The notes under the pieces were generated by a model, which worked only from the letters and a program-made list of their open reading frames with translations, did not search any database and was not told the DNA's origin. A stretch of DNA of 64,000 nt from Candidatus Bathyarchaeia archaeon (GTDB lineage: Archaea > Thermoproteota > Bathyarchaeia > 40CM-2-53-6). A program made the position numbers and the translations under genes. Below, piece by piece: positions 47,831-64,000 of this stretch (within the stretch, counting starts at the first letter, position 1; the number at the start of each line of letters is the position of its first letter). The DNA is taken from assembly GCA_049517415.1 (NCBI GenBank), contig JBEKSC010000004.1, positions 32,001 to 96,000 of the forward strand. The letters run 5' to 3'.

Positions 47831-48220
47831 CTAGTACGCTGATTCCCACAGGTCTACGGAATATTCGATGAAGTACCAGCCTGGGTACCAGTTTCCGGCT
47901 AGGATCGTGCTGTGTATGTCCCCCATTTTAGCGTTGAACGTCGTTACGCCATCTTGCATGTCGAATAGTCTCGTTACGCCGTCGCGCAAGCGTCGCAGCT
48001 TCGCCAGCTCATTGGCTGCCCAGGCGATCGTTGTTGCTCTGATTTCTCCTGAAACGGTGGCAGTACGGCCTTTATTCCATGCCGTTGAAGGCGTCCAATG
48101 GTCTACGTTTCGCGCAGGCACCACAGTGTCAAGTAATACCTGGTTGGCAGCGAAGTCAACTTCCAGAACGTGTTGAAAGACGACCGGGCCGAATTGAACT
48201 TTCGTTTCGTCGTCAGCCAT
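47831..48220 (-). CDS. Putative Dit/gpU-like tail-tip protein
   Basis: GRTATVSGEI...IEYSVDLWE pattern; resembles the C-terminal domain of the upstream ORF. Confidence 0.45.
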   Translation of the reverse strand: MADDETKVQFGPVVFQHVLEVDFAANQVLLDTVVPARNVDHWTPSTAWNKGRTATVSGEIRATTIAWAANELAKLRRLRDGVTRLFDMQDGVTTFNAKMGDIHSTILAGNWYPGWYFIEYSVDLWESAY

Positions 48221-50139
48221 CAGTCTATCGCCTCTTGAGCCACGAAGGAGTAATTGTAGATCGCGCCATCTTCCGCCTTCTTAGGTTTAGGCACGGACGA
48301 TACGTAGGCGTAGAAACTCTCGCCTGTTGGTAGCATGAAGAAATGCTTCGTGTTGTTTGCTAAGCCAAGAATCATTGCAAGCTCGCCGGCCAAGTCCGTC
48401 GTCCAACCGGTGATCGTTAATTTTCGTCCCTTACCACCCTGGTAGACCTCATTAGGCAACCCGTCGCTCGCCGGCAGGTTCGTCATATTCACGAGCTCAT
48501 CTAACTGAACGGTGAGAACGTGGGAGAACGACGTTCCGTCCACGCTAAGTTGTCCCTGCATCGTGTAGGCGAGTTCAACCGCTAAACCGATCTCGGGAAC
48601 GATTGGCACTGGCCACGGTACAAGGATATATTCTGTGAACGTTCCACTATCCGTAGACTTCAATGAGGCAAGGACGGATTGAGTTATTTCCGTACCTTGA
48701 GTTGATTCTCCAGTCGTTATCAGAGGGCCAGGTGTAAGCTTCTCCGTACCTGTGCCTGTTTCATTGATTCCGGGGCCTCCAGAAACGCTGGATCCGTGCG
48801 CTCCAGAACCTGTTTCAGTGATGGTAAATGATGCTGTTAGGCCCCAGCCTTCAACACCTAACCCGGAGTCGGCAACGGTGAAGGTTACGCTGAGAGCTGG
48901 CAGGTCGGTGCCGGAGCCTGTTTCATTAATCGCTGGGCCTCCAACGGTGCTAAGTAATTCAGTCCCAGCTACAGACTCGAACACGTCAACCTCCGTGTAG
49001 ACGGCGACCGTGAACACTTCACTAAAGACGCCTTCCTCTAACACAACTGGCGAGTAGTAGGGTAGAACGCCGGTGGTCCTGATGTCCGTTTCCGTGTAAG
49101 TGCCAACCTCAGTCACAGTCAAAATGTAGGTGGGGAAATCGTTTTCCGATCCGATGCCGCTTTCAGCCGCAATCGGCGTGTTGACGGGAGTAAGCGCTTC
49201 GGTACCGGTTCCACTCTCAGCAGGCGCTAGAACCGGTTGCAGAGACACCGTCAAATCAGTGCCTGTACCAGCCTCAGATGTGGAGATGAAATTTATCGCT
49301 TTGAATGTGGCGATGACCGCCACTCGATTGGCTTGGGCTCCTGAGTCGGTGTATGTGGTACTTTGTGTTCCGGTTGAAGTCACAATCTTATACATGTAAG
49401 CGCTGGTGGCAACATTAGACCCACCTGTACCGTCAAGCAACGTGTAACCGTTGCTTGGGCTTGATATTGAGGTCGCTCCTCCGTTCCAAGTTCCGGCGCT
49501 GACTACCACTAATTCATTGGCGAACGTTGTTGCGCCACTTGTTGAAATCGTTACGGGCGACGTGACATTCGCTACGGTCCCGTTTTGGTCTACTGGACTT
49601 ACTGTCGTTATGCCTGACCATTCGCAAACGTTGACTACTGCCAAACTGGCTGGATTGCCGCTTAGAGTCACGGTTATTGACTTAGAGGTCCCGCTACCAA
49701 TTAGCCCCCACCACAGTTCGCATTGTTCCCCAAAATTGGAGATCGAATTAACGTAAGTCCAAGTTACACCGGTTTGAGTTATGCCGGTGACAGCGAGATT
49801 CGTGCCACTGTTACCGCTGTTATTCGCGATAGCCAATATGAGTAAGTTACCGTTCGTAGGTGTACTGCCAAGTAAATTGGTGAATACAAGCGGGCTACTG
49901 GTCCCTGTGCCTCGATATGGACCTTGAACGAGAACGATGTTTGCTGCTGCGCCTCGAAGAAAAATTAGTCCCAGAATAGCGTCGCGCAGAAATTTCTCGT
50001 ATGCTTTCTCGTTCCAAGATGTAACGGGGTAGAGGATGGTTTGCTCGTACCCGACAGCGAGGGCTAGAATAGCGAGAGTTTGGACGAGATGCCTACGGCT
50101 AGTACCTCCATAGCATCTACTCTCCGACAAGGTTACCAC
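48220..50139 (-). CDS. Tail fibre/adhesin-like protein with E.G.G.E repeats and a C-terminal Dit-like domain
   Basis: Beta-sandwich N-domain (PTNGNLLI, EWSGI), repeated ExGxGxE/D units. Confidence 0.6.
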   Translation of the reverse strand: MVTLSESRCYGGTSRRHLVQTLAILALAVGYEQTILYPVTSWNEKAYEKFLRDAILGLIFLRGAAANIVLVQGPYRGTGTSSPLVFTNLLGSTPTNGNLLILAIANNSGNSGTNLAVTGITQTGVTWTYVNSISNFGEQCELWWGLIGSGTSKSITVTLSGNPASLAVVNVCEWSGITTVSPVDQNGTVANVTSPVTISTSGATTFANELVVVSAGTWNGGATSISSPSNGYTLLDGTGGSNVATSAYMYKIVTSTGTQSTTYTDSGAQANRVAVIATFKAINFISTSEAGTGTDLTVSLQPVLAPAESGTGTEALTPVNTPIAAESGIGSENDFPTYILTVTEVGTYTETDIRTTGVLPYYSPVVLEEGVFSEVFTVAVYTEVDVFESVAGTELLSTVGGPAINETGSGTDLPALSVTFTVADSGLGVEGWGLTASFTITETGSGAHGSSVSGGPGINETGTGTEKLTPGPLITTGESTQGTEITQSVLASLKSTDSGTFTEYILVPWPVPIVPEIGLAVELAYTMQGQLSVDGTSFSHVLTVQLDELVNMTNLPASDGLPNEVYQGGKGRKLTITGWTTDLAGELAMILGLANNTKHFFMLPTGESFYAYVSSVPKPKKAEDGAIYNYSFVAQEAID

Positions 50140-50194
50140 GGCTTGAAATCGTGAGGGTGCTGAGCTGAAAGAAACTCAGCGAAGGAAAGAAAGC

Positions 50195-50826
50195 TTAGGC
50201 TAACGTGATCTGCACAGTAGCGATCCAGGAAGCTGCGGCCTTCAACTTATGTATTGAAGGTTTCCGCTAACCTTAGTGCCCATCGCTTGCTGCGCACGGT
50301 CCAGCATCGTTCCGCCACCGGCAGCCGCGTTGAAGATACCGATTTCATTCCACGCATAGTCGGCGACGGCGCTGGCAAAGGTTGCCTGCCAAGTCGCCAG
50401 CTGCGAAGATCCGAAAGTCGGGTATCCTCCATTCATGGCTGCGTATGCTTTGTTCGTGCTGGCTTGAAGTGCGACCTGTGTTGCTACTGCCGCGCTTGTG
50501 CTATCACCCACACCGATGTACGCGTTGACATTGTTGAATAGAGTTGCACCCGTCCCGGCTACTAGAGTCCAAAGTATGTTGATTCCAGCGTTCAGAAGGC
50601 AGTTGCCGCGGAATCGTTTGATGGCCAGTAATGTGTCGAACTGTCGCATGATCTCGTCTAGCCCTACGCCGTCTATGGCTGCGCGAGCCACACGGTCCTT
50701 GGGGTCCCTGAATTTGTGGATCGTGAACTGCGAATAGTGCTGGGCGTAGTCGTGTGCGCCGTATCGTTGGGCGACGCGGATGGCGGCTCTTGCAATAGCC
50801 CGATCTACTAGGTTCTGGCCTGTCAA
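50195..50826 (-). CDS. Tail fibre/baseplate-associated protein; 200 aa if the 29-nt intron 50233..50261 is spliced
   Basis: NCLLNAGI, YIGVGD, ATF..A.YAWNEIGIFN, MLDR..GTK; spliced end GTKVSGTSWIATVQITLA*. Confidence 0.7.
50233..50261 (-). other. Candidate 29-nt BHB-type archaeal intron
   Basis: GCGG/CCGC 4-bp helix, bulges AAA and AGC, stem CCUUCAA/UUGAAGG; canonical cuts restore the frame. Confidence 0.75.
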
Positions 50827-51008
50827 GTTCCCCCACCCTCCACATAGCGAGCGAGTTCTGCGATCACTGCGTTAGCGCTCATCATTAGGGCAGCAGAAAC
50901 AGGGCCCAGTTTCAGTGTGCCGTCTTGACTTGTCAGTATCAAGTTGCCGTTGACGTCCGACTGGAGAGTCCAATCGGCGTTCTGGACTGCGAAATTAAAA
51001 TAGCTCAT
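50823..51008 (-). CDS. Small hypothetical virion-associated protein
   Basis: 61 aa, GGAGG upstream, overlaps the next start. Confidence 0.6.
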   Translation of the reverse strand: MSYFNFAVQNADWTLQSDVNGNLILTSQDGTLKLGPVSAALMMSANAVIAELARYVEGGGT

Positions 51009-51084
51009 AGAAATTTTTCCTCCACTTCCCTATCTACTTGTAAGGCGCTGCTGTTAGGAGGCGCCATCATTCAGTAACGAATGA

Positions 51085-53172
51085 TTATGCTGCCAGGGTG
51101 ATTCCGGCGCTGAGGTCGCTTAGCATTCGGCTTGAGGTTTCGTCAAGCTCCCACAGTTGAGGCATACGCCGGTTCAGGTCGATTGTGGCAATCGTCGGGT
51201 CACTTAGATCCCGCTGAATGCGAACCACGGTGTATAGGCCAGCTAACCCGAGGTCGGGAATGTTGACGGTAATCGAATCCTCAGGCCCGAAAGTGTCTGG
51301 AGGATTCGTGTCTCTCACAGTTATTTGGGCGATGAGTTCGGTGTTTTCGGAATCCGCGAGCATAGCCTGACAGGCTATGGCTAGGGTGGTTGCGTCGGTG
51401 ACGGTTTTCTGGAATGCCACCTGTTCAATTAAGCCGTATTTGTTGATGCTATCGCTGTCACTTTGAATGCTGACTATACCGTTTCCAACCAGGTACATTC
51501 GGTTGCCCATCGTGGAGAAATCTAGTTCACTCGTTGAGTCACCCACCGTATCGCCTTCATTGAAGGCAACGTTCGATGTGCCGCCTCCGAACTGCGAGGC
51601 GAAGTCAAGGGTCAAGTTCGGGTTGACTCGGTACGTCCAACCAATGAGGCCGCAAACCTGCTGGATCGCAGCGCGAAGCGTAACATCAGTGAAAAGTACG
51701 CTTGGTAACGTGATGCCCGTAGTGCCTAGCTGTCCCACCATTATGCCGCATTGGTAATTGGTTAGTAGGCTGTTGATGATGAACTCTGGGCTTGCCGCAA
51801 GAAACTCCGCTTCCTGAATTATTCGGGTGTCTAAGAGTTTGGAGGCGTCAGAACCTGAAAGAGTAATCTTGTACGAGCTGCCTATAGTTCGCTTAATATC
51901 CTCTAGGAGTCCAGCGTACTCTAAGACACCGTACCGATAGACCCGAACGATTCCCCGCGGCGTAAGCGTTGGATAATAACGCGGCAGGTCGAACGTGAAG
52001 GTTTCGATCTTCTGCTGATAGTTCTGCCCGTAATGACTTGTGCCACCGGTTCCACCCACATAGGAATACGGGCAGCCCTCAACGTATAGTTGGAAAGGCT
52101 GCGTTTCATCCGGTCCCTCAGCATCGTAGAATACGTGAACGTTGACGAAGCCGGTTGCAGCGCCCACGGTAGCGTCGCCCGTCCAAGTTGCTTGAACCAC
52201 AGCGAGGCCCGGGGTGGTCGAGGTGAGGGATACGACCGCTAACCCAGCGGCGCTTGTGGTCGCACTTGCCGCGCTGAGTGTTCCGAGGGAGGTTGAGAAG
52301 TTAATTGTTTTACTAGGATACGGTAACTTGGTAGCTAAATTGATCAGCGTAGCCGTGATAACTGCAGTTGTCGGCTGGGCTTTGGATGGGGCGTTCTTCT
52401 GGTAAATCTGAAAATTATCCACGGTGAGACTCAACGTTTGAAGCGGTGTCCAATTCCAAACGTCGCCGCCACACATTGTTTGAGGCTGCGTCTGCTCAAC
52501 TAAAGTTGAACCATCGGCGGCGTAGACCATCGCGTATATTTGCGCGGGCAAAGCAGCCCAAACACTCGCAAGACTGATGACGACTGATGTGGCGTTACCA
52601 GCACAGGTGGCAGACCCGACTAAGCCACCGCCGGGTCCAGCCGTGTAGAGTGAAACTTTCTGACCGCCAGCTAACCCAGTTATAGTTACATTGTTAGACG
52701 AGTAGATCAGTAGGTCCTCGACAGCGATCTCTACGCTTTGGCCAGAAGTATCGGGGCTAAGGGCGAAAGCGTAACCGATCTGAATTTGTTGCGTACCACC
52801 CGGTAGAGTACCCTGTATGCCTGTCCAAGCTGCTTCACCAACGGTACCGAAACTGGTGCTTCCCACTTTAAGTGCGGCAACGTTCGACCTACCTGCAGCT
52901 GGCGGAATTGGCGTCTTGTAATTCAGCCGGAAAACTGCGCCGGTTCCGAGGTTGAAGGACTGATAGAAGTAAGCGTAGGCTTCGAAGCACGCGTAGAAAA
53001 GAGCCCACGCGTTGCCGTTGCTGAACGCCGTAGTCTCAAAGAAACCTGGGACGGTGCATGTTCCCAGACTATAATTATCGTTGGGCGTATCCCAAATGGT
53101 GGTTTTCCAATTACCGAGCGAACTTAAATCGCTACTGTAAATGATGCCCGAGGACCGCTGTGTGAGCGTCAA
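51085..53172 (-). CDS. Tail hub/Tal-like protein with N-terminal beta and Ig-like (Big_1-like) domains
   Basis: Follows the tape measure; FSTSLGTLS..ATT...G.A.V.LTS Ig motif; TLRAAIQQVC, N..YLVG, SINKYG, GPEDSITV hub-like motifs. Confidence 0.7.
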   Translation of the reverse strand: MTLTQRSSGIIYSSDLSSLGNWKTTIWDTPNDNYSLGTCTVPGFFETTAFSNGNAWALFYACFEAYAYFYQSFNLGTGAVFRLNYKTPIPPAAGRSNVAALKVGSTSFGTVGEAAWTGIQGTLPGGTQQIQIGYAFALSPDTSGQSVEIAVEDLLIYSSNNVTITGLAGGQKVSLYTAGPGGGLVGSATCAGNATSVVISLASVWAALPAQIYAMVYAADGSTLVEQTQPQTMCGGDVWNWTPLQTLSLTVDNFQIYQKNAPSKAQPTTAVITATLINLATKLPYPSKTINFSTSLGTLSAASATTSAAGLAVVSLTSTTPGLAVVQATWTGDATVGAATGFVNVHVFYDAEGPDETQPFQLYVEGCPYSYVGGTGGTSHYGQNYQQKIETFTFDLPRYYPTLTPRGIVRVYRYGVLEYAGLLEDIKRTIGSSYKITLSGSDASKLLDTRIIQEAEFLAASPEFIINSLLTNYQCGIMVGQLGTTGITLPSVLFTDVTLRAAIQQVCGLIGWTYRVNPNLTLDFASQFGGGTSNVAFNEGDTVGDSTSELDFSTMGNRMYLVGNGIVSIQSDSDSINKYGLIEQVAFQKTVTDATTLAIACQAMLADSENTELIAQITVRDTNPPDTFGPEDSITVNIPDLGLAGLYTVVRIQRDLSDPTIATIDLNRRMPQLWELDETSSRMLSDLSAGITLAA

Positions 53173-53173
53173 C

Positions 53174-55507
53174 TCATGTTACCGCCGTGTATTTGTAGCC
53201 TGAACCAAATTTTCTTTGCCGAATAATCTTCTGCTCAAGTATGCTTGCGACCGTTTGCCCATCCAACTGAACGACGGTTTGGTTCTGAAGTTGCATCGGG
53301 CCGGATCCTCCTTGGGAAGTTGGCGCTGCGGGTGGCGTTAGACCTGCGCCTATGGCTGCCTGTTGCGCCGGCGTTAGAACCTCCTCGCCGCCGTGAAGCA
53401 TGTAGATCCCCGTTGTGGGAACCATGCCGCCGAGTTGATAGCCTGGGCCTGTAAATTCTCCAAGTCCAGCCCCCGAAAGGCTCACGTTAATGCTGGTCAT
53501 AATCTCGCTGGGGATTTTGTCGAGCCAACTGATGACGTTTTGAATAACGCTGATCGCATCATCCGCAATCGTGGTGACAGTCGTTTCTATCATCGACGGA
53601 ATTGTAGAGATAACTGCGGTGACTTGGTCGAATCCAGTAACCGCATCCGAAACCACAGAACTAACAGTGATGTCCTTTGTGGACGGGATTGCCGCTAAAC
53701 CTGAGGTAACGGCGCCGAACGCTGCCTGCGCCCCACTTTGAATCTGCGACCATGTATTACTGAGAGCCGCAGCCACAGGCTGCACGGCCGTTGTTACTTT
53801 AGACCATAACGTTGAGCCAAGGTTAGTGTTGATTTGGTTTCCAATATTCAAAGTGGTAGTGGCCAGCGGCCCCATCCCGCTCGCTGCTGCGGTGGTCACG
53901 TCGTCCGTTCCAGTAGTCGTATCCTGGGTGGTCTTAGCCCAGAGGCCGTTCCACCAGTCGGTTAGATCTTGCCCCGCTGTCTGCGCGCCCTTCTGGATGC
54001 CCGTCGTGAAATTAGCCCAGTCCTGCTGGTACGTTTGAAGCCACCCGGGGGCGTTTTGTTCTTGGTTCGCGCCAGTGAAAATTTGGTCGGTCGGCGGGTT
54101 TAGGTTCTTTTGACTGAAAGCTTCGGGCGGTGGCGTTACATTCGTAAGTGTGGCCTGGTATGTCGGGGCGTTGGATTGAGGAATGACTTGGGCCGTCTGT
54201 GCAGTCGCGACGCCCATTGGTATGATGCCTACACTTTGAAGCCACTTCACATCGGTCATGATGGCGTTTAAGAAATCCATGCCCGTGATCGCGAGGTCGA
54301 GTGCTACTTCAATTGCGCCTTTAGCAACCTCAGAGACGAACCCCATGAGTTCAGTCAAGTCGCCAGAAGCCACGAACCCCGAGAAGACGCCCATGAATTT
54401 ACTCCACGTTGTCTGGACGCTTGGGTCGAGGGCTAGTGAAGTGATCCAGCTTGTGAATTTGGGCAGGTTGTCGTCAAGCCAACTGGTGAGGGATGTGAGT
54501 GTGGGGAGAAGCATGTCTCCAATTTGTATTTGGAGGTCGGCCCATTCGTTCGTGAGTTGCTGCTGCTTTCCCGCGTACGTGTCCAGCTGGGTTTGAGCTG
54601 CGCTCCCGAACTTATCGTTCAGCTGCGCCATAATGTCGTTGTAGTCTGACGCCTTAGCCGTTGCCCAGTCAAAGTTGATGCCCAGGGCGTGAGTTATGTC
54701 GTTCATCTGGGATGTGGTGATGGTGCCGGCTTTCCATGCGGTAACTAACTCGCCCGTAATCTGTGTCGCAGTCAGCTCTTTCCCGGTAGTAGTTGTGAGG
54801 CTGATTCCTGCCTGTTGAAGTATCTGTGTGAAGGGTTGTAGGGCGTTGACGCCGGCTTTCTGAATCGCAGCCGTTAAGTCGGCGGTTCCTTGTTTAAGAT
54901 CTGCGTTCGCCTTCGTCGTAGTCTGAATAATAATTCCGTACCGGGAGAGGGTGGTTGTGACACCGTCGAATGCTTTCCCGACAAGGTTCACGGCAGTGGT
55001 TAGGTCAAGATTCTTCGCGGCGGACAGGTTAGTTGCGACGGTCAGCGCTTGTTCCGCTTGCGTTGCGTTCATGCCGTAGGTTGCAAGAAGTTGCAGCCCC
55101 TGAACGGCAGCGGTTTGGCTGACGGTTGAAACCTGCTCTAAGCCCTGGACGAAGTTCTGGATCTGTGGTTGCTGCGCAGCCCAGGCGGCGCCGGTTAGGT
55201 GGAGGGATTGTTGAAGCATCGCCCACGCTGACTGTGAAGCTGCCGCAGCGGCTACGGCTTGTTGTATGCCTTGGACGACTTCGCCGATTCCAATAACCGC
55301 CGCGCCTGTCCATCCTGCAACCGCGAAGCCTTGCATCATCTGGCCGACTTGCGCGAAGCCTGGGCCGAGCTGCTGCAACTCCATACCCATTAGGCCCATT
55401 GAAGCGCTAATCTTCCCCATCACACTACTTGCTTCGTGACGGCGCCGTTTTTGTTACGGCTCTACCGCTTGGATGGCGAAGACTATACTTCCGATGTTTG
55501 TACTCAA
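53174..55507 (-). CDS. Tail tape measure protein; 769 aa from TTG 55507 if the 24-nt intron 55438..55461 is spliced
   Basis: Ala/Gln/Thr-rich helical; LSRYGI, KFGSAA..DTYAG, GG.VPTTGIYMLHGGEEVL; spliced start MSTNIGSIVFAIQAVDEASSVMGKI. Confidence 0.85.
55438..55461 (-). other. Candidate 24-nt BHB-type archaeal intron containing an in-frame UAA
   Basis: CGGU/GCCG helix, bulges AGA and UCA, stem GCCGU/ACGGC; splicing gives GCG GUA GAC GAA GCA (AVDEA). Confidence 0.75.
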
Positions 55508-55551
55508 ATCACGTTCACCTTCGTGGATGGTGTTTCTTAAAAATCGGAAGC
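55497..55551. repeat. Direct repeat of 57336..57390 (chaperone end / tape-measure start junction)
   Basis: 55 bp, 6 mismatches by hand alignment. Confidence 0.85.
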
Positions 55552-55849
55552 CAGGTTCGTTGCAGGGATGGTCCCATGTTGGCGCAAGCGCAAGAAGTCG
55601 AAAGGCTCCGCGAAGAAAACAGGGGACATAGAGAAATTTAATCGGCTAGAAAAAGTTGCCAATGAGATAATGATAAAGCAAGAGGAACGAATCAAGAAAC
55701 TAGAGACCGCATCAAGCCTCAAGGTCGAGCACCCAAGCCACGATAAGACGCCCGTATCCAAGGACAAGAAGCCTTAATCAAACTCTAGGGACGATAATTG
55801 GCTTTGTCGTCCTCCAATTCTGAAGACCCTATCCCGTTTTTCGCCATTC

Positions 55850-56364
55850 TCATGTGTTTATGGGAAGCTTGAAGTACATGAATGGCTCGCGCCGACCTTT
55901 CGGTTGATTTTCAGCCAGTTTGAATCCGCAATGTTCGTAGAAAGGAATAGACGCTATCTTTGCATTTAGTATCACAAATTGACATGCAACTTCCTCACGT
56001 ACTTTGGCAGCTGTGGCGATGGCATAGAGGCAGAGTATTCGGCCGACTCCCTTGCCTTGAAATTGCAGTTCAGTAGCAAGTCGTCCAATCATCAATGACG
56101 GATAGTATCGGTACGGCGTGTGCAACGGGCGGTGTTTTTCGTCAATGCTACTGACTTCGATGCTGCTCATACAAGACTCAAGAAGCCTGCAATTTGCGTG
56201 TTGAACAAGGCCAGATAAATGACAGCCGCGTGCTGAAGTTGCTGGTCTTTGGCTTGGTATCTTATGTAGTCATTAAGGTCTGAATTGCCGCAGTCAAAGA
56301 ACCCTGTGTCGTCAGCTATGCTTAGCTTGCGTAGGTTGATTTCTTCGACGGAAAAGATGGACAA
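55850..56364 (-). pseudogene. GNAT acetyltransferase toxin (AtaT/TacT-like), frameshifted near 56168
   Basis: FDCGNSDLNDY..IAGFLSL in one frame, YPSLMIGRLA..QGKGVG..FYEHCGF in the next; one base missing. Confidence 0.8.
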
Positions 56365-56373
56365 GAAAATAAG

Positions 56374-56502
56374 TTACTTCGGGAAGCGTTTCAAAGCCTC
56401 TTCGACTAATCTCTTCTGCGCTTCTGTCGGAGGCTCCGCTGCGTCTTTCAAGAACGCCTCTGCTTCCTTCCCCTTCAAGGTTGGGGGTGGATTTGGTAGC
56501 AT
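56374..56502 (-). CDS. 42-aa putative antitoxin of the GNAT toxin
   Basis: My translation MLPNPPPTLKGKEAEAFLKDAAEPPTEAQKRLVEEALKRFPK; directly upstream of the GNAT. Confidence 0.65.
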   Translation of the reverse strand: MLPNPPPTLKGKEAEAFLKDAAEPPTEAQKRLVEEALKRFPK

Positions 56503-56598
56503 TTTCGTATCCTCCGTTGTCCATTATATCATCATGATGACGATGCCATATAAGTCGTATGCTTGGAAATTAGAACCCTCTCGAACTTCGCTAAGCTG

Positions 56599-56816
56599 TC
56601 AAGTCGTAGTGGCAGCAGTCGTAGTGATAGTTACAGTGACAGACCTCGTCGCAGTGTTAGTAACCGTAGCAGACTGCGTGTAAGTCACACTCCTAGTTGA
56701 AAGGGTCTTAGTGGAGGTAACACTCACAGTGCTCGAGGTAACCGAATTGCTGGTCTGAGTGGCGCTCATGGTCCGAGTGTTAGTTACGGTCGCAGTACTA
56801 GTAACTGTGGCACTCT
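56599..56816 (-). pseudogene. Orphan Thr-rich surface-protein fragment
   Basis: SATVTSTATVTNTRT...TQSATVTNTATRSVTVTITTTAATTT* with no start codon. Confidence 0.65.
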
Positions 56817-56930
56817 TTCCAAAAGTACGTGCACAAGAGGAAGTTGAATGTAACGCTTAGTTCCATCCTTCTGGGTGAAAAGGTAGCTGAGATACTTGCA
56901 GACAATCTTGGTTCCCGCAGCTTGAGACAT
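56817..56930 (-). pseudogene. Truncated N-terminus of a putative retropepsin-like partner of the upstream gene
   Basis: MSQAAGTKIVCKYLSY..YIQLPLVHVLLE broken by the Thr fragment before any DxG motif; position after a DUF5678-like gene. Confidence 0.4.
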
Positions 56931-56952
56931 GGGAAGCCCAAGAAAGCTACCA

Positions 56953-57168
56953 CTACATGACCATTACAGGATCTGACGGAACTTTCATCACGAATGGGAT
57001 CTTGTCTGGGTACTGGTGCTTGGCCTTTATGAAGACCTCTTTCGCGGAATTGCCTTCAGCGATGATCTTGTCGTCCACAACAGCAATCCAGCAATTCACA
57101 TAGTCCCCTAGCTTATCTCCAATTGACATTACGTACTCTAGTTCTCCTTTCATGGGGAATTTCCTCAA
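56953..57168 (-). CDS. DUF5678-like small protein
   Basis: YVNCWIAVVDDKIIAEG.SAKEV..AK..P..KVP. Confidence 0.75.
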   Translation of the reverse strand: MRKFPMKGELEYVMSIGDKLGDYVNCWIAVVDDKIIAEGNSAKEVFIKAKHQYPDKIPFVMKVPSDPVMVM

Positions 57169-57335
57169 GAGAGAGATGACCGGTGGTCATCACTCTATAT
57201 TTATGTGTAGTCACCAAGGCACACTCTCAATGCATCCCACTTCGATCTGAACTCTAGCTTCAGAGCCCTGCACTCCTCAGCGTGCGATTCACTTAATCCA
57301 AAATCAGGGGACTGTACCAACCCCTCGCGGGAATT

Positions 57336-57390
57336 TTTGTACTCAAATCATTTTCACCTTCGTGGATGCTGTTTTTTAAAAATGAGAAGC
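57336..57390. repeat. Direct repeat of 55497..55551
   Basis: Hand alignment. Confidence 0.85.
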
Positions 57391-57889
57391 AGCCACTCTT
57401 GTTGTAAACGAGTGGGTTCCTCCATTCGTTCGGTTAACTTGTAACCGAACTCTGAGACTAGGACTTCGAGAGGGGCCGAGTAGACGGATCCTTCAGCGAA
57501 TGAACTCAGTTTGGCTTTGAGGCTTTTGGGCCCGCGGACAATCCGGATAGCTCAAACGAACGCAGAATAAGTTTCAAGCTTTCCATGGGCATCAAGGCTT
57601 TGGCCACGTCTGGCGCGCCTGTGGCGATGGCTGCGCCTTTCTGTAGAAACGCCAAGTTCGACGCCAACTTATCCTTGTTGCCGATATCCTTCAAGTCCAC
57701 GTTTGTTGACTGTAGGAGCTCTGCCAGGTCCGCGTCGCTCATTGGTGAGACCTCGAACTTGTGCAGTTCATTGTCGACGCCCTTGACCTCGACGGCTTCA
57801 TGGTACTTGGTGCCCTTCGTGATGAGTTCGGCTAGTTTCTGGTTCGCCGCTCTGGCTTCCAAGATTGCCTCTCGTTTTTCTTGACTCAA
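57354..57889 (-). CDS. Tail assembly chaperone (G 57506..57889; GT extension to 57354 via -1 frameshift)
   Basis: Position between tail tube and tape measure; C CCA AAA at 57524..57530; open -1 frame of 59 codons including the stop. Confidence 0.7.
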
Positions 57890-57985
57890 ATCTTTTCACG
57901 CTCCTCGTTTTCTTCCCGTGAGCTTCCGCCTTTGTAGCTTGATCGCGGAAGTGTCACCTTGAGGATTCAATGCACTTGCGTGGCA
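57804..57985. repeat. Direct repeat of 58884..59071 (partial third copy near 59686..59720)
   Basis: tacttggtgcccttcgtgatgagttcg...cacttgcgtggca present twice. Confidence 0.88.
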
Positions 57986-58021
57986 GGCAGGAGGTAGACG
58001 CCAAGGTAGGATGATAAGTAT

Positions 58022-58044
58022 TTATTGATAACAGTTATCAATAA
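58022..58044. promoter_or_regulatory. Perfect palindrome, probable TA autoregulation operator
   Basis: TTATTGATAAC-A-GTTATCAATAA just upstream of the antitoxin start. Confidence 0.7.
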
Positions 58045-58060
58045 TTAATATGGTGGGGGC

Positions 58061-58381
58061 ATGCCTTCAAGTTACAATCTGCCGGAGCTCGTCAAGAAGG
58101 AAATAAGTGCGTTGGTCAAGGCTGGATACTACTCAAGCAAGTCCGATGTCGTAAAGGACGCCCTCAGAACCTTTCTCTCTTCGAAGCGAAGCCTGAGACT
58201 AGCAGCCGCAGCAGAGTTGTATAAGGACGGCGAAGTCACGTTGGGCAAAGCCGCCGAGATTGCGGAGGTTGGGGTAGTTGAGTTCAAGGAAATGTTGGCA
58301 AATCTCGGTCATAAGAGGATGATCTCCGTAAACAGGAGCGATGTCAGAAGGGCTGACGAAATTATGAAAAAGATGAGATAA
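58061..58381 (+). CDS. RHH/CopG + UPF0175-like antitoxin
   Basis: LVKAGYYSSKSDVVKDALR; LYKDGEVTLGKAAEIA. Confidence 0.82.
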   Translation: MPSSYNLPELVKKEISALVKAGYYSSKSDVVKDALRTFLSSKRSLRLAAAAELYKDGEVTLGKAAEIAEVGVVEFKEMLANLGHKRMISVNRSDVRRADEIMKKMR

Positions 58382-58863
58382 TGGACGTTGTCGTCGACAC
58401 AGACATTCTCTCCACATTTGCCAAGGTCAACAAGCTGAAACTGCTCGTCAGACTTTTCCCAAAATCGCGAATCTTGGTCTGCCCAAGTGTTAATCTGGAA
58501 ATTAAGAAAGGAGCAGAATTGGGGCTTCTGAGATACTCGCATCCTCCCGATTTCATTTCAGTCAAGTTGGGCATGCGTGAAAAGGCGGCAGCCGGAGAAG
58601 TCAGAGAAGCTCTGAACTTGGGGTTAGGAGATGCTGAATGTTTGGCAGTCGCTCGAAATAGGAATTGCTTACTTCTCACCAACGACAGGAAAGCGGAGAG
58701 GGCTGCGGGTTCGCTTTCCATCCATTATCTCAATCTCCCGTTGCTGTTGAGAGAACTCTGGAGGAGCCACGTTATGACTAAATCGAGGGTGGCCAAACTT
58801 ATCGACGAAATCGAGAGAAAGGATAACGTCGTGATCAAGAATCGAGAATTTGTTTTCAAATGA
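58381..58863 (+). CDS. PIN-domain protein (DUF3368-like)
   Basis: VVDTDILS, LGLGDAECL, LLTND. Confidence 0.82.
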   Translation: MDVVVDTDILSTFAKVNKLKLLVRLFPKSRILVCPSVNLEIKKGAELGLLRYSHPPDFISVKLGMREKAAAGEVREALNLGLGDAECLAVARNRNCLLLTNDRKAERAAGSLSIHYLNLPLLLRELWRSHVMTKSRVAKLIDEIERKDNVVIKNREFVFK

Positions 58864-58883
58864 ACCCCAAATCACAAGAACGA

Positions 58884-59071
58884 TACTTGGTGCCCTTCGT
58901 GATGAGTTCGCCGAGTTTCTGGTTGGCCGCTCTGGCTTCCAAGATTGCTTCACGCTTTTCTTGACTCAAATCTTTTCACACTCCTTCTGTCTTCTGCCTA
59001 TGAACTTCCGCCATTGTAGTTCAGTGATTGGGCAAGTGTAACCTTGCAGGATCCGGTCCACTTGCGTGGCA
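58884..59071. repeat. Direct repeat of 57804..57985; truncated chaperone 5' copy
   Basis: Encodes MSQEKREAILEARAANQKLGELITKGTKY, then diverges. Confidence 0.85.
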
Positions 59072-59098
59072 ATTGCTACCTAGAAGCAGCCGAACAAA

Positions 59099-59359
59099 TT
59101 ACCTTTCATAAGCATCCTTCCGATGCTCAAATCTCAATAAGATCAGCTTGTCACCCTCGACTTTGTAAATGAGTCTGAAAGGCTTCACGTAAATGCACCA
59201 TTCGCCCTTCAGGCCATAACGCAGGTGCTTTCCGAAGTTTGGATTATCGGCAACTTTGTCTATTTGCTTTTGCAGTTTTTCCTTCAGGCTCTTGTCCCTT
59301 ATCCTTCTTACATCACGCTCGAATTTGTCGGTGGGTACGATGAACTTTATTTCTACCAT
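59099..59359 (-). CDS. relE: RelE/ParE-family toxin
   Basis: KFERD, NPNFGKHL...LKG, FRLIY, HRKDAY. Confidence 0.85.
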   Translation of the reverse strand: MVEIKFIVPTDKFERDVRRIRDKSLKEKLQKQIDKVADNPNFGKHLRYGLKGEWCIYVKPFRLIYKVEGDKLILLRFEHRKDAYER

Positions 59360-59631
59360 TTCTTGAACTCTTTGAAGAAGGCTTTCCTCGAATAGATCTC
59401 ATACCTTCCTTCTTCTATATCCTGCCATGCTTCCTCAATCAGCTTAAGTGTCCTCAAATCTTCGGGCTTCATTCCGGTCTCCAACTTCTTCAACACGATC
59501 ATATCCTTCCTCGCCGTCACGGCGAACACGCTCCCCCTCTTGATCCCAAGCTGTCTCCTAATGATGCTGGGTATCACTATCTGGCCTTTCGAACTTGCTT
59601 TTGTCAACTCAGGGATTCTTGATTCTTTCAT
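59353..59631 (-). CDS. AbrB/MazE-domain antitoxin
   Basis: SSKGQIVIP..IRRQLGIKRG. Confidence 0.85.
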   Translation of the reverse strand: MKESRIPELTKASSKGQIVIPSIIRRQLGIKRGSVFAVTARKDMIVLKKLETGMKPEDLRTLKLIEEAWQDIEEGRYEIYSRKAFFKEFKKW

Positions 59632-59699
59632 ACGAGTAAGATATGCTTACATCTATTTAAAGCGAGGATGAACGAACTGCCTGCGACGCTTTTCTAGAC

Positions 59700-60029
59700 T
59701 CAAGTCTTTTCGCTCCTTCTCGTTTTTCGATTGTGAATCTCAGTGAGTACACTCAGGTCGCCCTGAAGGGCTTTCTCCACCTGCGCCGCACGCAGAAGGA
59801 AGAGTGAATTGTTGCTGACGGTTTGGAACACTATGCGTCCCCCAGCCTCCTGAATCTGACTCCGGATCTTCTGCACGTCGCCAAGTCTGCAGCTCATGAC
59901 GACGCCAAAGGTGATGGGGAATTGTAGGTCGGGGCTATCGCTAGGCTGTGTTGCGTCCGGAAAAAGAGTAGGGGAGTTATGTTCTTGCTTGCTTAATTCT
60001 TTGTAACTGCGGTTCTCCATTTTCTCCAT
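59700..60029 (-). CDS. Hypothetical protein between tail tube and chaperone
   Basis: 109 aa, purine-rich upstream; 3' end overlaps a relic chaperone start. Confidence 0.6.
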   Translation of the reverse strand: MEKMENRSYKELSKQEHNSPTLFPDATQPSDSPDLQFPITFGVVMSCRLGDVQKIRSQIQEAGGRIVFQTVSNNSLFLLRAAQVEKALQGDLSVLTEIHNRKTRRSEKT

Positions 60030-60059
60030 CTCTCCAATCTTAAACGGCCTAAGAAAGGC

Positions 60060-60521
60060 CTACGGACCCGGCGAGCCGGTGGTGTTGGTGATTGAGGCGA
60101 ACATGAAAGTCCATGTTTCCTCAAGGAACCCGTCAGTAGTCTTGAGATCCTCTTGGTAGTCACCTATACAGCCACAAAGCACGATCCCGGTCCCGGTTAG
60201 CTTGTTCTTGACCGCCAAGAAGAGCGGTGTCAAAGCACCGATTGTGAAGGCGCCCACATTTGTTGCGAAAGATCCTGTGGCACCGGATACTTCGGCGAGT
60301 TCATCAACCCAGCGTACTATCGTGCCAGTGTACTTGACGAGTGTTCCGTAGACTTCGGTCCCTCGAGAGCCGATTCCCACGGCCACCTGTGTGGTGTTCT
60401 GATTGACTTTGTAGGTGAGACTCTCAAGGTTGGTTAGTGGAGGCGCAGTTAGGCAGTTCGTTGCTGAGGTCCCTATTCTTATGACCACCTCATCGCCAGT
60501 GTATTTCAAAGCTTGTTTCAC
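60060..60521 (-). CDS. Probable tail tube (major tail) protein
   Basis: Beta-rich 153 aa, YTG.EV, YTGTI.R, ETWTF; position after the gp10-like gene. Confidence 0.6.
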   Translation of the reverse strand: MKQALKYTGDEVVIRIGTSATNCLTAPPLTNLESLTYKVNQNTTQVAVGIGSRGTEVYGTLVKYTGTIVRWVDELAEVSGATGSFATNVGAFTIGALTPLFLAVKNKLTGTGIVLCGCIGDYQEDLKTTDGFLEETWTFMFASITNTTGSPGP

Positions 60522-60556
60522 GCTCCGTCAGGTCTCAATGAGACTGTGACCAGAAA

Positions 60557-60908
60557 CTACTGGAACGCCCAGAGAATCCCGTCCCGAACAAGGGACAATA
60601 ACTTCGCCTGCCCCTCTTCTGCCGAAGGGCGAATGAACGGCTCCGCGGCCATTTTCCGCGTGCCACATTCCACGAAAAAAGGTGTAGTCGGCATCCGCTC
60701 CTAATTCCAGCTGCATCCCGTCCACCGTGTGGTAGATGCTGCTTTGCAGATGGCCCGTTCTTACCGGGACCAGCTGCCTCGAGTGAGCTTCCATATCGGT
60801 GCCGGCCTCCTCAAGGGCGGTAGCGATCGCTTTCTGAATCTCGGCTTTCGCGGCGAGAAGCTTAGCCGTAACCGTATCCGACACAATCTGGATGCTGAAG
60901 CCTGGCAA
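60557..60908 (-). pseudogene. HK97 gp10-like tail-completion protein with a +1 frameshift in a T6 run
   Basis: VPVRTGHLQSSI..DYTFF; +1 frame continues VECGTRKMAAEPFIRPS..AFQ*. Confidence 0.8.
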
Positions 60909-61130
60909 CTATTTTCCCCAACCGATGAGTTTGACGTCGTCGTGAAATCCGCAGAGCGTGCAGAGAACGCTTGGCCGTACGGTCCCATCTACTTCAATCG
61001 TATGCCTGGCCAAGGAGAGCAGGTCGGTTCCGTCGTTGATGTACACAATTCGCCTGCCGTCCTGGGCTTGATAGTAGTGCCAGGTGCGCGGTTGCCAGTC
61101 TGCGTTCAGCGCTTTCGGAAGTTCCAACAT
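60909..61130 (-). CDS. Small Cys/His protein
   Basis: HTI..DGTV.PSVLC..CGFH. Confidence 0.65.
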   Translation of the reverse strand: MLELPKALNADWQPRTWHYYQAQDGRRIVYINDGTDLLSLARHTIEVDGTVRPSVLCTLCGFHDDVKLIGWGK

Positions 61131-61136
61131 TCCTGA

Positions 61137-61583
61137 TCAGCTTGAGTAGAGTACAATGTTCGCGTGGAAATCGTCAGGCAACGGCAGCATGTTATGCGCC
61201 CACACTTCAACGGTGAACGAGCTCAGCGGTTCCGGGAAGGGCGTGTAGAAGTTCGCGTTCCCACTATCGCCAGTGTTGACCTGGGCGATCTCGGTCCCGT
61301 TGACGAAGATGTGAATCGAAACATGGAGCCAGAACCAAGTCGAAACTGTGACCTGCGCCGCCTTCACTGGCTGCCCAAGATGGACAATGATGAAGCGATA
61401 GTAGACGGTCTTGGCGGAAATCATCTCGTACACGTAGATCGGACTCTGCGTCGCCGTCACCTGTTCAGTGAAGACTGGTTGCGGTAACGCGCCGTAGAAT
61501 GATAGGAACACTAGGCTGATCAGTACCAGGAAACCGAATTGCTTCAGCGCCGATTTCGTGCGCTTGACAATGTCTTCTTTCAT
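61137..61583 (-). CDS. Membrane-anchored or secreted hypothetical protein
   Basis: N-terminal TM helix then beta-rich domain. Confidence 0.6.
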   Translation of the reverse strand: MKEDIVKRTKSALKQFGFLVLISLVFLSFYGALPQPVFTEQVTATQSPIYVYEMISAKTVYYRFIIVHLGQPVKAAQVTVSTWFWLHVSIHIFVNGTEIAQVNTGDSGNANFYTPFPEPLSSFTVEVWAHNMLPLPDDFHANIVLYSS

Positions 61584-61584
61584 G

Positions 61585-62052
61585 CTAAGTGGCCAGCTTA
61601 CGGTGGGTCCAGAAGGTCCAATCTTGAATCACCCTGGCTTCTCGCGTCAATACCGGGACCCGTACTGAGGCGCCGAGGGGTAACGTGTCTATGTCCATGA
61701 CTTTCTGTAGGCTGTGAATATCGTAAGTGTCCCGGAGAGCGTCGTGGGCGTTCCAGATAGCCTGCTCAACCTGGTCGGCCAGTTTGCTGCACCCTGCTTT
61801 GTCGTCGAAGTTCACGTCGACCTGCAGCCGGTAGAGGTTCATGACTGCACGGCCACCCGGGGCGCTTGCCGGTCCGCCGTACATGCTGACGCCAGTGGTT
61901 CTACTTGTGCCGGCAACTATGGTGAGGACGATGCTGCGTATGTCGGCGCCTTCGAATGGCAACTCCTTGTAGATCGTGACTCCCAGGTTCGCGGCTGTGA
62001 GAACCGCGGCGAAGGCTGCGCGGACATCCTGCCGAGGCGTAGGCGTACTCAA
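61585..62052 (-). CDS. Probable tail terminator/completion protein
   Basis: R..FAAVL....VTIY..., RLQVDV..D......LADQVEQAI pattern and position. Confidence 0.6.
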   Translation of the reverse strand: MSTPTPRQDVRAAFAAVLTAANLGVTIYKELPFEGADIRSIVLTIVAGTSRTTGVSMYGGPASAPGGRAVMNLYRLQVDVNFDDKAGCSKLADQVEQAIWNAHDALRDTYDIHSLQKVMDIDTLPLGASVRVPVLTREARVIQDWTFWTHRKLAT

Positions 62053-62058
62053 AGGAGG

Positions 62059-62169
62059 TCATCCGTGAAGCGCTACGGCGATGGCTAGGACGATGAGTAC
62101 GACCGCGGCGCAGATGCCCAGAGCGATGTAGCAACCTGAAAGAAAACCACGTACGGCAGCTCGCAGCAT
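62059..62169 (-). CDS. Small single-TM peptide
   Basis: MLRAAVRGFLSGCYIALGICAAVVLIVLAIAVALHG after an AGAAGAAGUGA RBS-like sequence. Confidence 0.45.
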   Translation of the reverse strand: MLRAAVRGFLSGCYIALGICAAVVLIVLAIAVALHG

Positions 62170-62174
62170 TGAAA

Positions 62175-62378
62175 TCACTTCTTCTTGAGCATGCAGAGGA
62201 CAGCTACGACGGCGAAAGCGAGGCCGCCAAGCGTCAGGCTGCCCGTGAGGTACCATACAACGACGGCCAGCACGATGGCGGGTAGGAAGTAGATTGCCGC
62301 CTTCAGTAGAATGATCAGGATCGTCCCAACCACGAGAAACACGCCTAAGAAGAATATGTCAACCAAGAATGGCATCAT
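62175..62378 (-). CDS. Small multi-TM membrane protein
   Basis: Highly hydrophobic, KKK tail, GAGGUGA RBS. Confidence 0.65.
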   Translation of the reverse strand: MMPFLVDIFFLGVFLVVGTILIILLKAAIYFLPAIVLAVVVWYLTGSLTLGGLAFAVVAVLCMLKKK

Positions 62379-62394
62379 AACATTCTCACCTCTC

Positions 62395-62778
62395 CTAATT
62401 CGCCAAGTACTCGGCGATCGGGAACACGACCTTCCGCAGCACCCAATCCTTTAAGGCCGCATGCGGCCGGTCCAGTTGGATGTACATTCGATATCGGCTA
62501 ACGGGAATGACCGAGGGTAGCTTGCCTTGGGCAACTCTCTTGAGTCGACAGAACATCAGGCACGTGAAGTGCGGGCGCCGATAGTGCAGGCCTGGGTGGC
62601 AGATGCAATTCCAACGCGTAACCACAATGTTCGGCGGCGTCATCTTCATGTACAGTTTGCCGTCGAGAACGTCACGCATGATCATGGCGTTTGGGCCAAA
62701 CGGCTCAAGCGGAACCAGGTTGTCTCCGGATCCCGTGCCACCGGATACGTGCCACTCATTGGTCGGGGGTTGACTCAT
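62395..62778 (-). CDS. Hypothetical protein
   Basis: 127-aa ORF co-oriented within the operon. Confidence 0.55.
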   Translation of the reverse strand: MSQPPTNEWHVSGGTGSGDNLVPLEPFGPNAMIMRDVLDGKLYMKMTPPNIVVTRWNCICHPGLHYRRPHFTCLMFCRLKRVAQGKLPSVIPVSRYRMYIQLDRPHAALKDWVLRKVVFPIAEYLAN

Positions 62779-63016
62779 TAATTTTCACGTTCACGTTCCA
62801 GAACACTTTCCAAGGTCTGCAGCCGTAGACATCACTATGTCGAACCACGGCAGCCACAACGTCGTCAGCTGAAATACGGCAATCTTGTCGGAAGCAGGAG
62901 TAGATAACACGAAGGCAAAGGGGGCAAAGCGCTGAGATTGGCGGAACGATACAACACTCTAGTATCACTGCGACTTTGGGAAAGTCTTCAACTGATGATA
63001 GTTTGCTCAATCCCAT
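62756..63016 (-). CDS. Cys-rich hypothetical protein
   Basis: CPLC; C-terminus NESTPDQ copies that of the upstream gene. Confidence 0.4.
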   Translation of the reverse strand: MGLSKLSSVEDFPKVAVILECCIVPPISALCPLCLRVIYSCFRQDCRISADDVVAAVVRHSDVYGCRPWKVFWNVNVKINESTPDQ

Positions 63017-63028
63017 GTGACTTCCCTC

Positions 63029-63508
63029 TCATTGGTCTGGAGTGGGTTCATTCCAGCCGTCGACTATGTTCGGCGTCTGGTACTTGCTGACAGCGGTGTA
63101 CGGATAGCGCTTGATCCAGGGCGTCAGCAAGTCCTGCAGATCCTTGGGTAGCACGGCCTGGAGGGGGATTGAGATTTGGAACATGGTCTCGTGAACGAGT
63201 GGTCCCATCTTGTTGGTGACCATGTACTGAATCATATTCGACGACGCCCGTGCGGCAATGTCCTGGATGGCAGGCGGGATTGCTCCTGGGAAGTCGACGT
63301 CGAAATCCCGCTTACAGAAACGATTGATGTGACTTTGAGCCCGAGGAATCAGCGTGTTGTCTATGAAAGTGTTGAACGCGGCCTCGTTAGGAAATGGGGC
63401 TTGAACGCCCCCTGCGCCCGTCGTGCCAGACACGTTGAGAGCACTCCACTTCGTAGCCGCGTAAATCTTGACTTCAGCGCTGGTGGTCCATGCTGACATA
63501 CTATGCAC
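63029..63508 (-). CDS. Head-tail adaptor (gp6/gp15-like)
   Basis: WTT.AEVK, AQSHINRFCKRDF, P.AIQDIA, L..W pattern. Confidence 0.7.
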   Translation of the reverse strand: MHSMSAWTTSAEVKIYAATKWSALNVSGTTGAGGVQAPFPNEAAFNTFIDNTLIPRAQSHINRFCKRDFDVDFPGAIPPAIQDIAARASSNMIQYMVTNKMGPLVHETMFQISIPLQAVLPKDLQDLLTPWIKRYPYTAVSKYQTPNIVDGWNEPTPDQ

Positions 63509-63511
63509 CTG

Positions 63512-63808
63512 CTACCTTCCGCTATCGCTAAGGTTCTTCTCGTTGAGTCGCCGCGTAACATCTCGGACGGCGAGCCGGCGCTTGGCTTCTCGGAGGTCTG
63601 CTTTGCCTGCGGAGCCCGCGGTGCGGAGGCGTGATCTAATCGGGGCCTTCTTGGCCACGACGACCAGGGCTTTGGTTACCGCGTGAATGGTCTTGATCAG
63701 TTTCGCTTTCTCGTTCACAGAATGCAGCAAAGTGAAGGTGGTGAGTAAGGTGTTGATGCTCGTGGCTACAAGGGCCACGGAAACGAGGACGGTGTCAGCA
63801 TCTACCAT
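63512..63808 (-). CDS. Hypothetical protein, N-terminal hydrophobic helix and basic C-terminus
   Basis: 98-aa ORF within the operon. Confidence 0.5.
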   Translation of the reverse strand: MVDADTVLVSVALVATSINTLLTTFTLLHSVNEKAKLIKTIHAVTKALVVVAKKAPIRSRLRTAGSAGKADLREAKRRLAVRDVTRRLNEKNLSDSGR

Positions 63809-64000
63809 CTACTATCTACCTTCCACTGATGATTAGTCCCGCTCGAGTGGGACGGCTGGGGACAGCCGAAGTCTCGTTCACTATGCGACCGCTGGCCGCA
63901 TGATTATTGTGACTGCTGATCCTTCAGGTTCCAATGTTCTACGGTCACGCTGAGGGGTACCGTGTCGGCGCTTGCCGCCCACTCGGGTGTCGGGGTATGG

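Follow-up and report, generated by a model that had tools for sequence, protein, structure and literature searches.

The window analysed here is a stretch of 64,000 nucleotides (G000:C4:32001-96000 of the host genome, G000) and holds the tail half of an integrated head-tail provirus (47831..64000, minus strand), which runs on to ~G000:C4:106600. The head-tail module comprises a terminase (two ORFs), a portal, a protease-like gene, an HK97-type capsid gene, a gp10-like gene, a tape-measure gene and tail proteins. One tail gene, lying with all of its parts on the minus strand, contains a 29-nt insert (50233..50261), which the predicted cuts, HMM deletions and RNA folding characterize as a putative BHB intron of the relaxed HBh' type. 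Exon 1 (50262..50826), defined by the ORF and its phrog_23653 match, starts with TTG and carries codons 1-188 plus one base; exon 2 (50195..50232), placed by the HMM, the homolog P0157 and a structural model, contributes two bases, 11 codons and a TAA stop and encodes the last beta-strand. If the insert is retained, the ORF (50242-50826) yields a protein of 194 aa and ends at a stop codon inside the insert (50244-50242), and the C-terminus typical of the family lies in another frame (50232-50195). Against phrog_23653 this ORF scores an E of 6e-30; phrog_5417 and phrog_4176 (tail fiber) are weak matches.

The window copy of the provirus looks partly decayed and is maybe defective, and the insert could be silent here today. 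The HK97-gp10-like gene (60528-60908, minus strand), which is intact in the related genomes G061 and G021, changes frame where a run of T near 60680 holds one base more: mutation, assembly error or recoding would each account for it. None of the six Phage_integrase matches lies on the provirus contig C4, and an att repeat sought for the provirus was not found. However, decay does not explain the intron, because the G061 provirus shares it and has an intact gp10-like gene. In a further sign of decay, the start of a 127-aa tail gene occurs twice (near 58960 and 57880), on either side of inserted PIN-domain and other toxin-antitoxin-like ORFs (~57800-59700); a GNAT gene block likewise lies between short duplicated stretches near 57360 and 55520. 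The large terminase subunit is split over two ORFs, one for the ATPase and one for the nuclease (G000:C4:104453-105902; L098:3766-5179; L100:114-1725), which overlap in two cases; as an intron site it was rejected, given that the split is found in all three proviruses and that no BHB candidate lies at the overlap. A scan with Pfam of a subset of the window-provirus ORFs found no homing endonuclease family. In G061 a free-standing DUF559/Vsr-like endonuclease ORF lies upstream of the protease and capsid genes (L098:7688-8449, minus strand); in G000 and G021 its place is filled by other genes.

Geometry of the insert and the reading frame of the tail gene

The 5′ strand of the central helix, GCGG (50264..50267, read from 50267 to 50264), lies within exon 1 and pairs with CCGC in the intron (50238-50235): all four pairs are Watson-Crick, with pair probabilities of 0.98-1.0. 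The intron hairpin (50239..50260) consists of seven Watson-Crick pairs, CCTTCAA/TTGAAGG (50260-50254 with 50245-50239, pair probability 0.99-1.0), and an 8-nt loop; its stem resembles that of the D-arm intron of the host tRNA-Leu(TAG). Two bulges of 3 nt each flank the central helix, at 50263-50261 (5′) and 50234-50232 (3′). ViennaRNA leaves the 5′ bulge unpaired with a probability of 1.0; the 3′ bulge has the right spacing but is predicted to pair with upstream exon bases (unpaired probability 0.01-0.14), and holding both bulges open would cost 1.6-3.6 kcal/mol. Beside the bulges a single in-register pair makes up the outer helix, so that the insert departs from the strict hBHBh' motif; exon-exon helices further from the insert are predicted by folding. 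The insert fits the relaxed HBh' class, as the accessible text of PMC4090602 describes it, and not the strict class. The earlier note had described a 4-bp helix, a 7-bp stem, two 3-nt bulges and a weak outer helix, and this description holds, with the addition that the 3′ bulge, though rightly spaced, is paired in the predicted fold. A scan of the 2.65-Mb genome for strict BHB hairpins gave 67 hits, in comparison to 41, 48 and 45 in three shuffles: BHB geometry alone is weak evidence, and the relaxed motif does not carry the case by itself.

Two other kinds of element were considered for the insert and rejected. A target-site duplication, which the earlier note had named as the sign of a transposon, was sought by inspection of both ends of the 29-nt insert and no direct repeat was present; nor does the genome contain a second copy (the best other match is 14 nt), and a transposon or MITE footprint was discarded on these grounds. 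Self-splicing introns of group I or II have a ribozyme core of some hundreds of bases, and in group I the last base of exon 1 is U. At 29 nt and with A as the last base of exon 1, and given that nothing in the window reached the gathering score of any Rfam family, the insert is not a self-splicing intron of group I or II.

The frame break was located independently by homology. We built an HMM from 145 homologs, taken from the best 150 of 1108 relatives after the two closest and three long ones had been left out, and scored with it 3660 deletions (61 starts combined with lengths of 1-60). Removal of the insert in the BHB register raised the score from 214.8 bits for the unspliced sequence to 231.4 bits, the top score of all 3660 deletions, which the BHB register shares with two neighbouring 29-nt registers; deletions of any other length reached 228.4 bits at best. 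In 106 of the 145 homologs G-x-K is followed after five residues by W, and the protein ends nine residues beyond this W in 100 of 107 occurrences of the pattern; across 120 homologs the exon-2 Trp is conserved to at least 90%. P0157 represents a natural intronless allele, with P0274 as a second member: it has 200 aa, is 87% identical over 188 aa and ends GTKASGTSWISTVQITLA. Its junction residue is Thr, and among the top registers the BHB register alone yields Thr, the neighbours giving Ala or Asn; the product after the BHB cuts has 200 aa and agrees with P0157 in both length and junction residue. The two predicted cuts coincide with the break located by homology, and coincidence by chance is rejected. 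In keeping with the earlier note, homologs align to the downstream frame, and the cuts land in the right frame although the length is not a multiple of three; the HMM comparison of spliced and unspliced C-terminus, a check that the note had proposed, favours the spliced one.

The uninterrupted gene is the rule among relatives. A single-piece gene with the family C-terminus is found in 81 of 89 fetched loci that carry the gene; the other eight are L001 and its duplicate L092, L093-L095, which are 100% identical to the window and therefore non-independent, L096, L097 and one contig-end fragment. The family-type end is present in 113 of 117 further homologs, and the homolog in G021, a genome of the same genus (L003), has the C-terminus seen in P0011, a protein labelled Candidatus Bathyarchaeia. 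In a further set of loci the gene is present in 79 of 82 and interrupted in none (56 by a strict rule and 23 by eye; four are cut by contig ends and many repeat earlier contigs). Among 59 genomes of the family the gene is detected at E 1e-8 only in G000 and G021, and the G021 copy is uninterrupted.

A PDB search by sequence gave no match for the tail protein. The P0157 model, built from a 120-row alignment (pLDDT 94), has a last beta-strand at residues 189-199. The unspliced protein, modelled from an 18-row alignment, has a short strand at 189-193 formed by insert-coded residues; with alignments of such different depth the confidences of the two models are not comparable. The earlier note had held that splicing restores the last beta-strand: the strand is there in the P0157 model, and the need to restore it is inferred, the unspliced model also having a short strand. 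The best Foldseek match of the P0157 model is a domain of the HFTV1 tail chain 9h4p_BD (E 3.5e-5), and the modelled fold is akin to this protein, the phi812 baseplate protein 9euf_b, the GP4 fibre-tail adaptor 8jou_a and A511 gp105, with structural Z values for tail, baseplate and fibre-adaptor matches of 11.4 (rmsd 6.6, 134 aligned), 9.2 (2.4, 101) and 7.7 (3.4, 116). The predicted fold resembles tail and baseplate-arm proteins, a shared fold that leaves the exact tail role unfixed.

The insert in related proviruses and further putative introns

In the G061 provirus the insert (L001:3161-3189) is identical at 28 of 29 bases, the one change falling in the loop. The surrounding gene is far more diverged: between the window and L001, 113 of 480 bases differ over codons 1-160 (58 synonymous and 27 non-synonymous codons), whereas 0 of 30 bases differ over codons 189-198. 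Past codon 198 exon 2 of L001 keeps the Leu through a synonymous change, has a different last residue and ends in TGA instead of TAA. Either structural constraint or a recent short transfer would fit the unusual sameness around the intron. Through its loop change L001 has a stop inside the insert in the exon-2 frame. Contig L096 contains the first nine intron bases and then ends, and these two, G061 and in part L096, are the only other viruses with the 29-nt intron. The exact intron pattern was found across viral contigs in G061 only, a protein scan of genome contigs for intron-bearing relatives gave none, and a search for the junction pattern returned no viral locus and three genome loci, none of them with an HMM match. 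Two more features were noted downstream of the tail gene: L001 preserves the intergenic hairpins at ~50130-50190, beyond exon 2, much more closely than it does the coding sequence, and an in-frame stop at L001:4487-4494 splits the following gene, which is one 639-aa ORF in the window.

Some more distant proteins are broken in the same place. P0167, a distant homolog, and P0260, P0278, P0279 and P0284 break right after G-T-K-A-S-G, at the same codon as the intron. By length, four of the ten members of the P0260 cluster are broken (205 aa) and the other six have 186 aa (one read, intact); an intact mate in this cluster is P0276. The short hydrophobic tail of P0167 is similar to that of the unspliced product. 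From these protein sequences a break after the G-T-K-x-S-G motif appears to recur in two distant lineages, P0167 and the P0260 cluster.

Comparison with relatives revealed three further putative BHB introns. The window provirus itself has a second mini-intron of 24 nt near the start of the tape-measure gene (55438..55461, minus strand): it contains a stop, is absent from G061 and G021, and the BHB cuts restore their reading. A stop-containing BHB intron of 39 nt lies near the end of the major capsid gene of G061 (L098:11561-11599) and is absent from the capsid genes of the window and G021. The third, of 32 nt, interrupts the Tyr135 codon of the same tail gene in L096 (876-907) and has a 3-bp outer helix; the database proteins P0002, P0154 and P0155 end at this site. 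Each of the three inserts (24, 32 and 39 nt) introduces a stop or breaks the frame, is absent from relatives and leaves a restored reading after the bulge cuts, so that with the 29-nt insert four different BHB inserts over three structural genes have cut sites that restore the relative's reading in each.

The Tyr135 site, uninterrupted in the window (approximately 50420..50425, minus strand), is occupied by the 32-nt BHB intron in L096 and by a different type of element in L001. This 698-nt element (L001:2301-2998; its start is also seen in L097 from ~968) sits one base upstream of the 32-nt intron site and contains an in-frame LAGLIDADG ORF (E 3.5e-5). U is the last base of exon 1 and G that of the element, and a P1 helix folds; no Rfam family reached its gathering score, and RF00028 matched weakly (12.6 bits, E 2). 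From the boundary bases, the P1 fold, the partial core match, the LAGLIDADG ORF and known motif features we classify it as group I-like. Recent co-conversion from this site to the 29-nt intron is not supported: over codons 135-178 the window and L001 differ at 31 of 132 bases. With the 32-nt intron one base from the LAGLIDADG-bearing group I-like site, some mini-introns may persist by breaking the target of a homing endonuclease.

Host splicing enzymes and the tRNA-Leu(TAG) intron

The host encodes two EndA-family genes and the ligase RtcB. Its catalytic EndA subunit is closest to Aeropyrum/Sulfolobus-type enzymes (E 7.5e-39) and aligns at the Tyr, His and Lys positions of crenarchaeal chains, which we take to be the catalytic triad; the second subunit is without these residues and looks non-catalytic. 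The loop of the catalytic subunit reads K-P-K where the reference has K-P-R, and a loop motif of the K-P-K type is tied to relaxed substrates or broad specificity in the accessible text of PMC12397907. Two-subunit EndA enzymes are linked to HBh' sites in that of PMC4090602. Judged by its genes, the host appears to have a crenarchaeal-type two-subunit EndA able to cut relaxed motifs, plus a ligase. G000 also has many intron-bearing tRNA calls, and in a rough catalogue of host tRNA introns, some of which are probably false, the outer helix has two pairs or fewer in 15 of 18 candidates.

A search with the stem pattern led to the tRNA-Leu(TAG) gene, the similar intron being its first, in the D-arm region. 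This intron was parsed in 17 of the 18 best loci of the genus, including the host copy at G000:C5:2273-2298. Viral and host intron have in common the 5′ bulge of AA followed by A, six leading pairs of the stem, four bases of the loop and the final two bases, and they differ in the helix strand, as required. G000 has 577 BHB candidates in the neighbourhood of T-arm motifs; of these, the tRNA-Leu(TAG) intron has a likeness score of 23 and the next candidate a score of 9. Shuffles of the viral stem and loop reached a score of 23 in 1 of 300 and 15 of 4000 cases, figures that come from a rough catalogue and short sequences; corrected for four introns tested and one matching, the chance is ~0.015. 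The other three viral introns are without a match, 284, 67 and 156 of 300 shuffles being as good. Across 401 genomes of the class the stem pattern occurs at 23 places in 21 genomes, the two matches in G002 being plain hairpins, and a central helix of four pairs was found among 21 loci examined only in the window insert and the tRNA-Leu copy of G012. The host tRNA-Leu(TAG) gene (G000:C5:2259-~2460, L207; also L206) has an extra insert of ~65 nt just after the T-loop, which G000 and G018 share and which most of the other copies read from the genus lack.

Given a rough catalogue and such short sequences, a common origin of the viral and the tRNA-Leu(TAG) intron is close to an even call. The direction would be from tRNA to virus, because the tRNA has the intron throughout the genus and the virus only in places: the viral intron would have been copied from the host tRNA-Leu(TAG) intron, with four helix bases adapted to the new exon. 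More generally, host tRNA introns might jump into viral structural genes as mobile mini-introns, from tRNA-Leu(TAG) in this case, and tie virion assembly to EndA and RtcB; this is a tentative proposal, and we lean somewhat against it.

Interpretation and relation to known archaeal introns

The insert is most probably a BHB-type mRNA intron in a provirus tail gene, and the virus very probably borrows the tRNA-splicing enzymes of its host to make the tail protein. In the tail transcript the end of exon 1 would pair with the end of the intron in the 4-bp helix, and the intron would fold as a hairpin. The two-subunit endonuclease of the host would then cut after the second base of each 3-nt bulge, and RtcB would join the exons. 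The joined mRNA would move into the frame of the last beta-strand and give a protein of 200 aa, and without splicing, translation would end inside the intron after 194 aa. We infer that the gene is transcribed, that the RNA is cut, that RtcB ligates it and that the last strand is needed; observed are the geometry, the agreement of the cuts with the homology break, the intronless allele, the same intron in a second virus (and its start in a third) and the host enzymes.

Other explanations have to be weighed against splicing. The hairpin could instead be an inert insertion, never spliced, which inactivated the tail gene while the provirus decayed; this would agree with the frameshifted gp10-like gene, with a contig that lacks an integrase match, with the inserted toxin-antitoxin-like modules and with a BHB geometry that alone is at chance level. 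It is very unlikely, however, in view of the same insert in G061, whose gp10-like gene is intact and whose exon 2 keeps frame and stop despite base changes, and of four inserts in three structural genes whose cut sites all restore the reading of a relative. The unspliced protein of 194 aa could also be the working form, with insert residues replacing the start of the last strand and splicing being optional or giving a second form. The conserved Trp of exon 2 and the ten unchanged codons of the G061 exon 2 make us regard this as highly improbable, although the unspliced model does contain a strand at 189-193 and the distant homolog P0167, whose reading breaks at this codon too, likewise ends in a short hydrophobic stretch.

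Recoding, either by a -1 frameshift or by a ribosome hop over the hairpin, would reach exon 2 without splicing. The exon-2 frame is open across the whole insert in the window, and a hairpin follows the break. In L001, however, the stop inside the insert leaves almost no room for a shift, and a shift would lengthen by about ten residues a spacing that is fixed at five in 106 of 145 homologs. Inspection of the sequence found neither a matching landing codon in the exon-2 frame nor a canonical slippery heptamer under the usual motif rules, and we consider recoding extremely improbable. Splicing of a BHB intron remains our preferred explanation.

Watanabe 2002 and Yoshinari 2006 are said to have reported the BHB intron of the cbf5 pre-mRNA. 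According to the accessible text of Yokobori 2009 (PMC2738675), this intron of Crenarchaeota resembles the viral insert in being short, intra-coding, patchy and of relaxed BHB geometry and in that its removal is needed for the conserved protein; there too the cuts fall between the second and third bulge bases and EndA is hetero-oligomeric. Unlike cbf5, the insert lies in a viral structural gene, in a Bathyarchaeia host and with several introns per morphogenesis module, and its splicing is predicted. In Haloferax a BHB intron lies in the 5′ UTR of HVO_1309, with cbf5 named as the only other mRNA case in the accessible part of Schwarz 2020 (PMC7714728). As far as that part describes it, the HVO_1309 intron is, as is predicted for the viral insert, an mRNA substrate of the tRNA splicing endonuclease, but it is situated in the untranslated region of a cellular gene. 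The nearest viral precedent is the putative in-frame introns of 12 bp that Peng et al. proposed in protein-coding genes of an archaeal virus, as summarised in the same accessible text of PMC2738675. These inserts, by that summary, are likewise short and in coding genes of an archaeal virus; unlike them, the 29-nt insert disrupts the reading frame and contains a stop codon, and the family C-terminus is unattainable without removal or recoding. For tRNA introns of Thermoproteales, transposition has been described (Fujishima 2010, as reported in the accessible text of PMC4090602 and of bioRxiv 10.64898/2026.10.13.758758). There, too, a similar short BHB intron is seen at unrelated sites; the Thermoproteales cases, as reported, go from tRNA to tRNA within a genome, whereas the present case would involve a viral mRNA as the second site.

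In the literature searched, mostly open-access main texts without their supplements, we found no frame-breaking BHB intron in a viral gene. The Bathyarchaeia virus preprint 10.1101/2023.08.24.554615, PMC11705971 and PMC11529989 do not use the word 'intron' in their main texts; it stands only in the reference list of PMC13465236, and PMC13149111 contained nothing relevant. BHB introns of mRNA are known from the cellular gene cbf5; what appears to be new is a viral insert that resembles an intron found genus-wide in the host tRNA-Leu(TAG).

Reviews, in their accessible parts, treat protein-spliced archaeal mRNA introns as an oddity of one or two genes (cbf5 and the HVO_1309 UTR). Here a few related proviruses have four predicted BHB introns, in genes for tail, tape-measure and capsid proteins, and natural intronless alleles serve as controls. 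Viral morphogenesis genes would thus be able to depend on the tRNA-splicing enzymes of the host. Gene callers truncate such proteins, and databases contain truncated forms of 194 aa and 139 aa. The origin and movement of BHB introns become testable, as one short gene unites a candidate donor (the tRNA-Leu intron), the insertion site, alleles without the insert and a rival group I-like intron. If true, a jump from tRNA to virus would be a traceable gain of an intron from tRNA into mRNA, and viruses would keep such mini-introns since EndA and RtcB of the host remove them.
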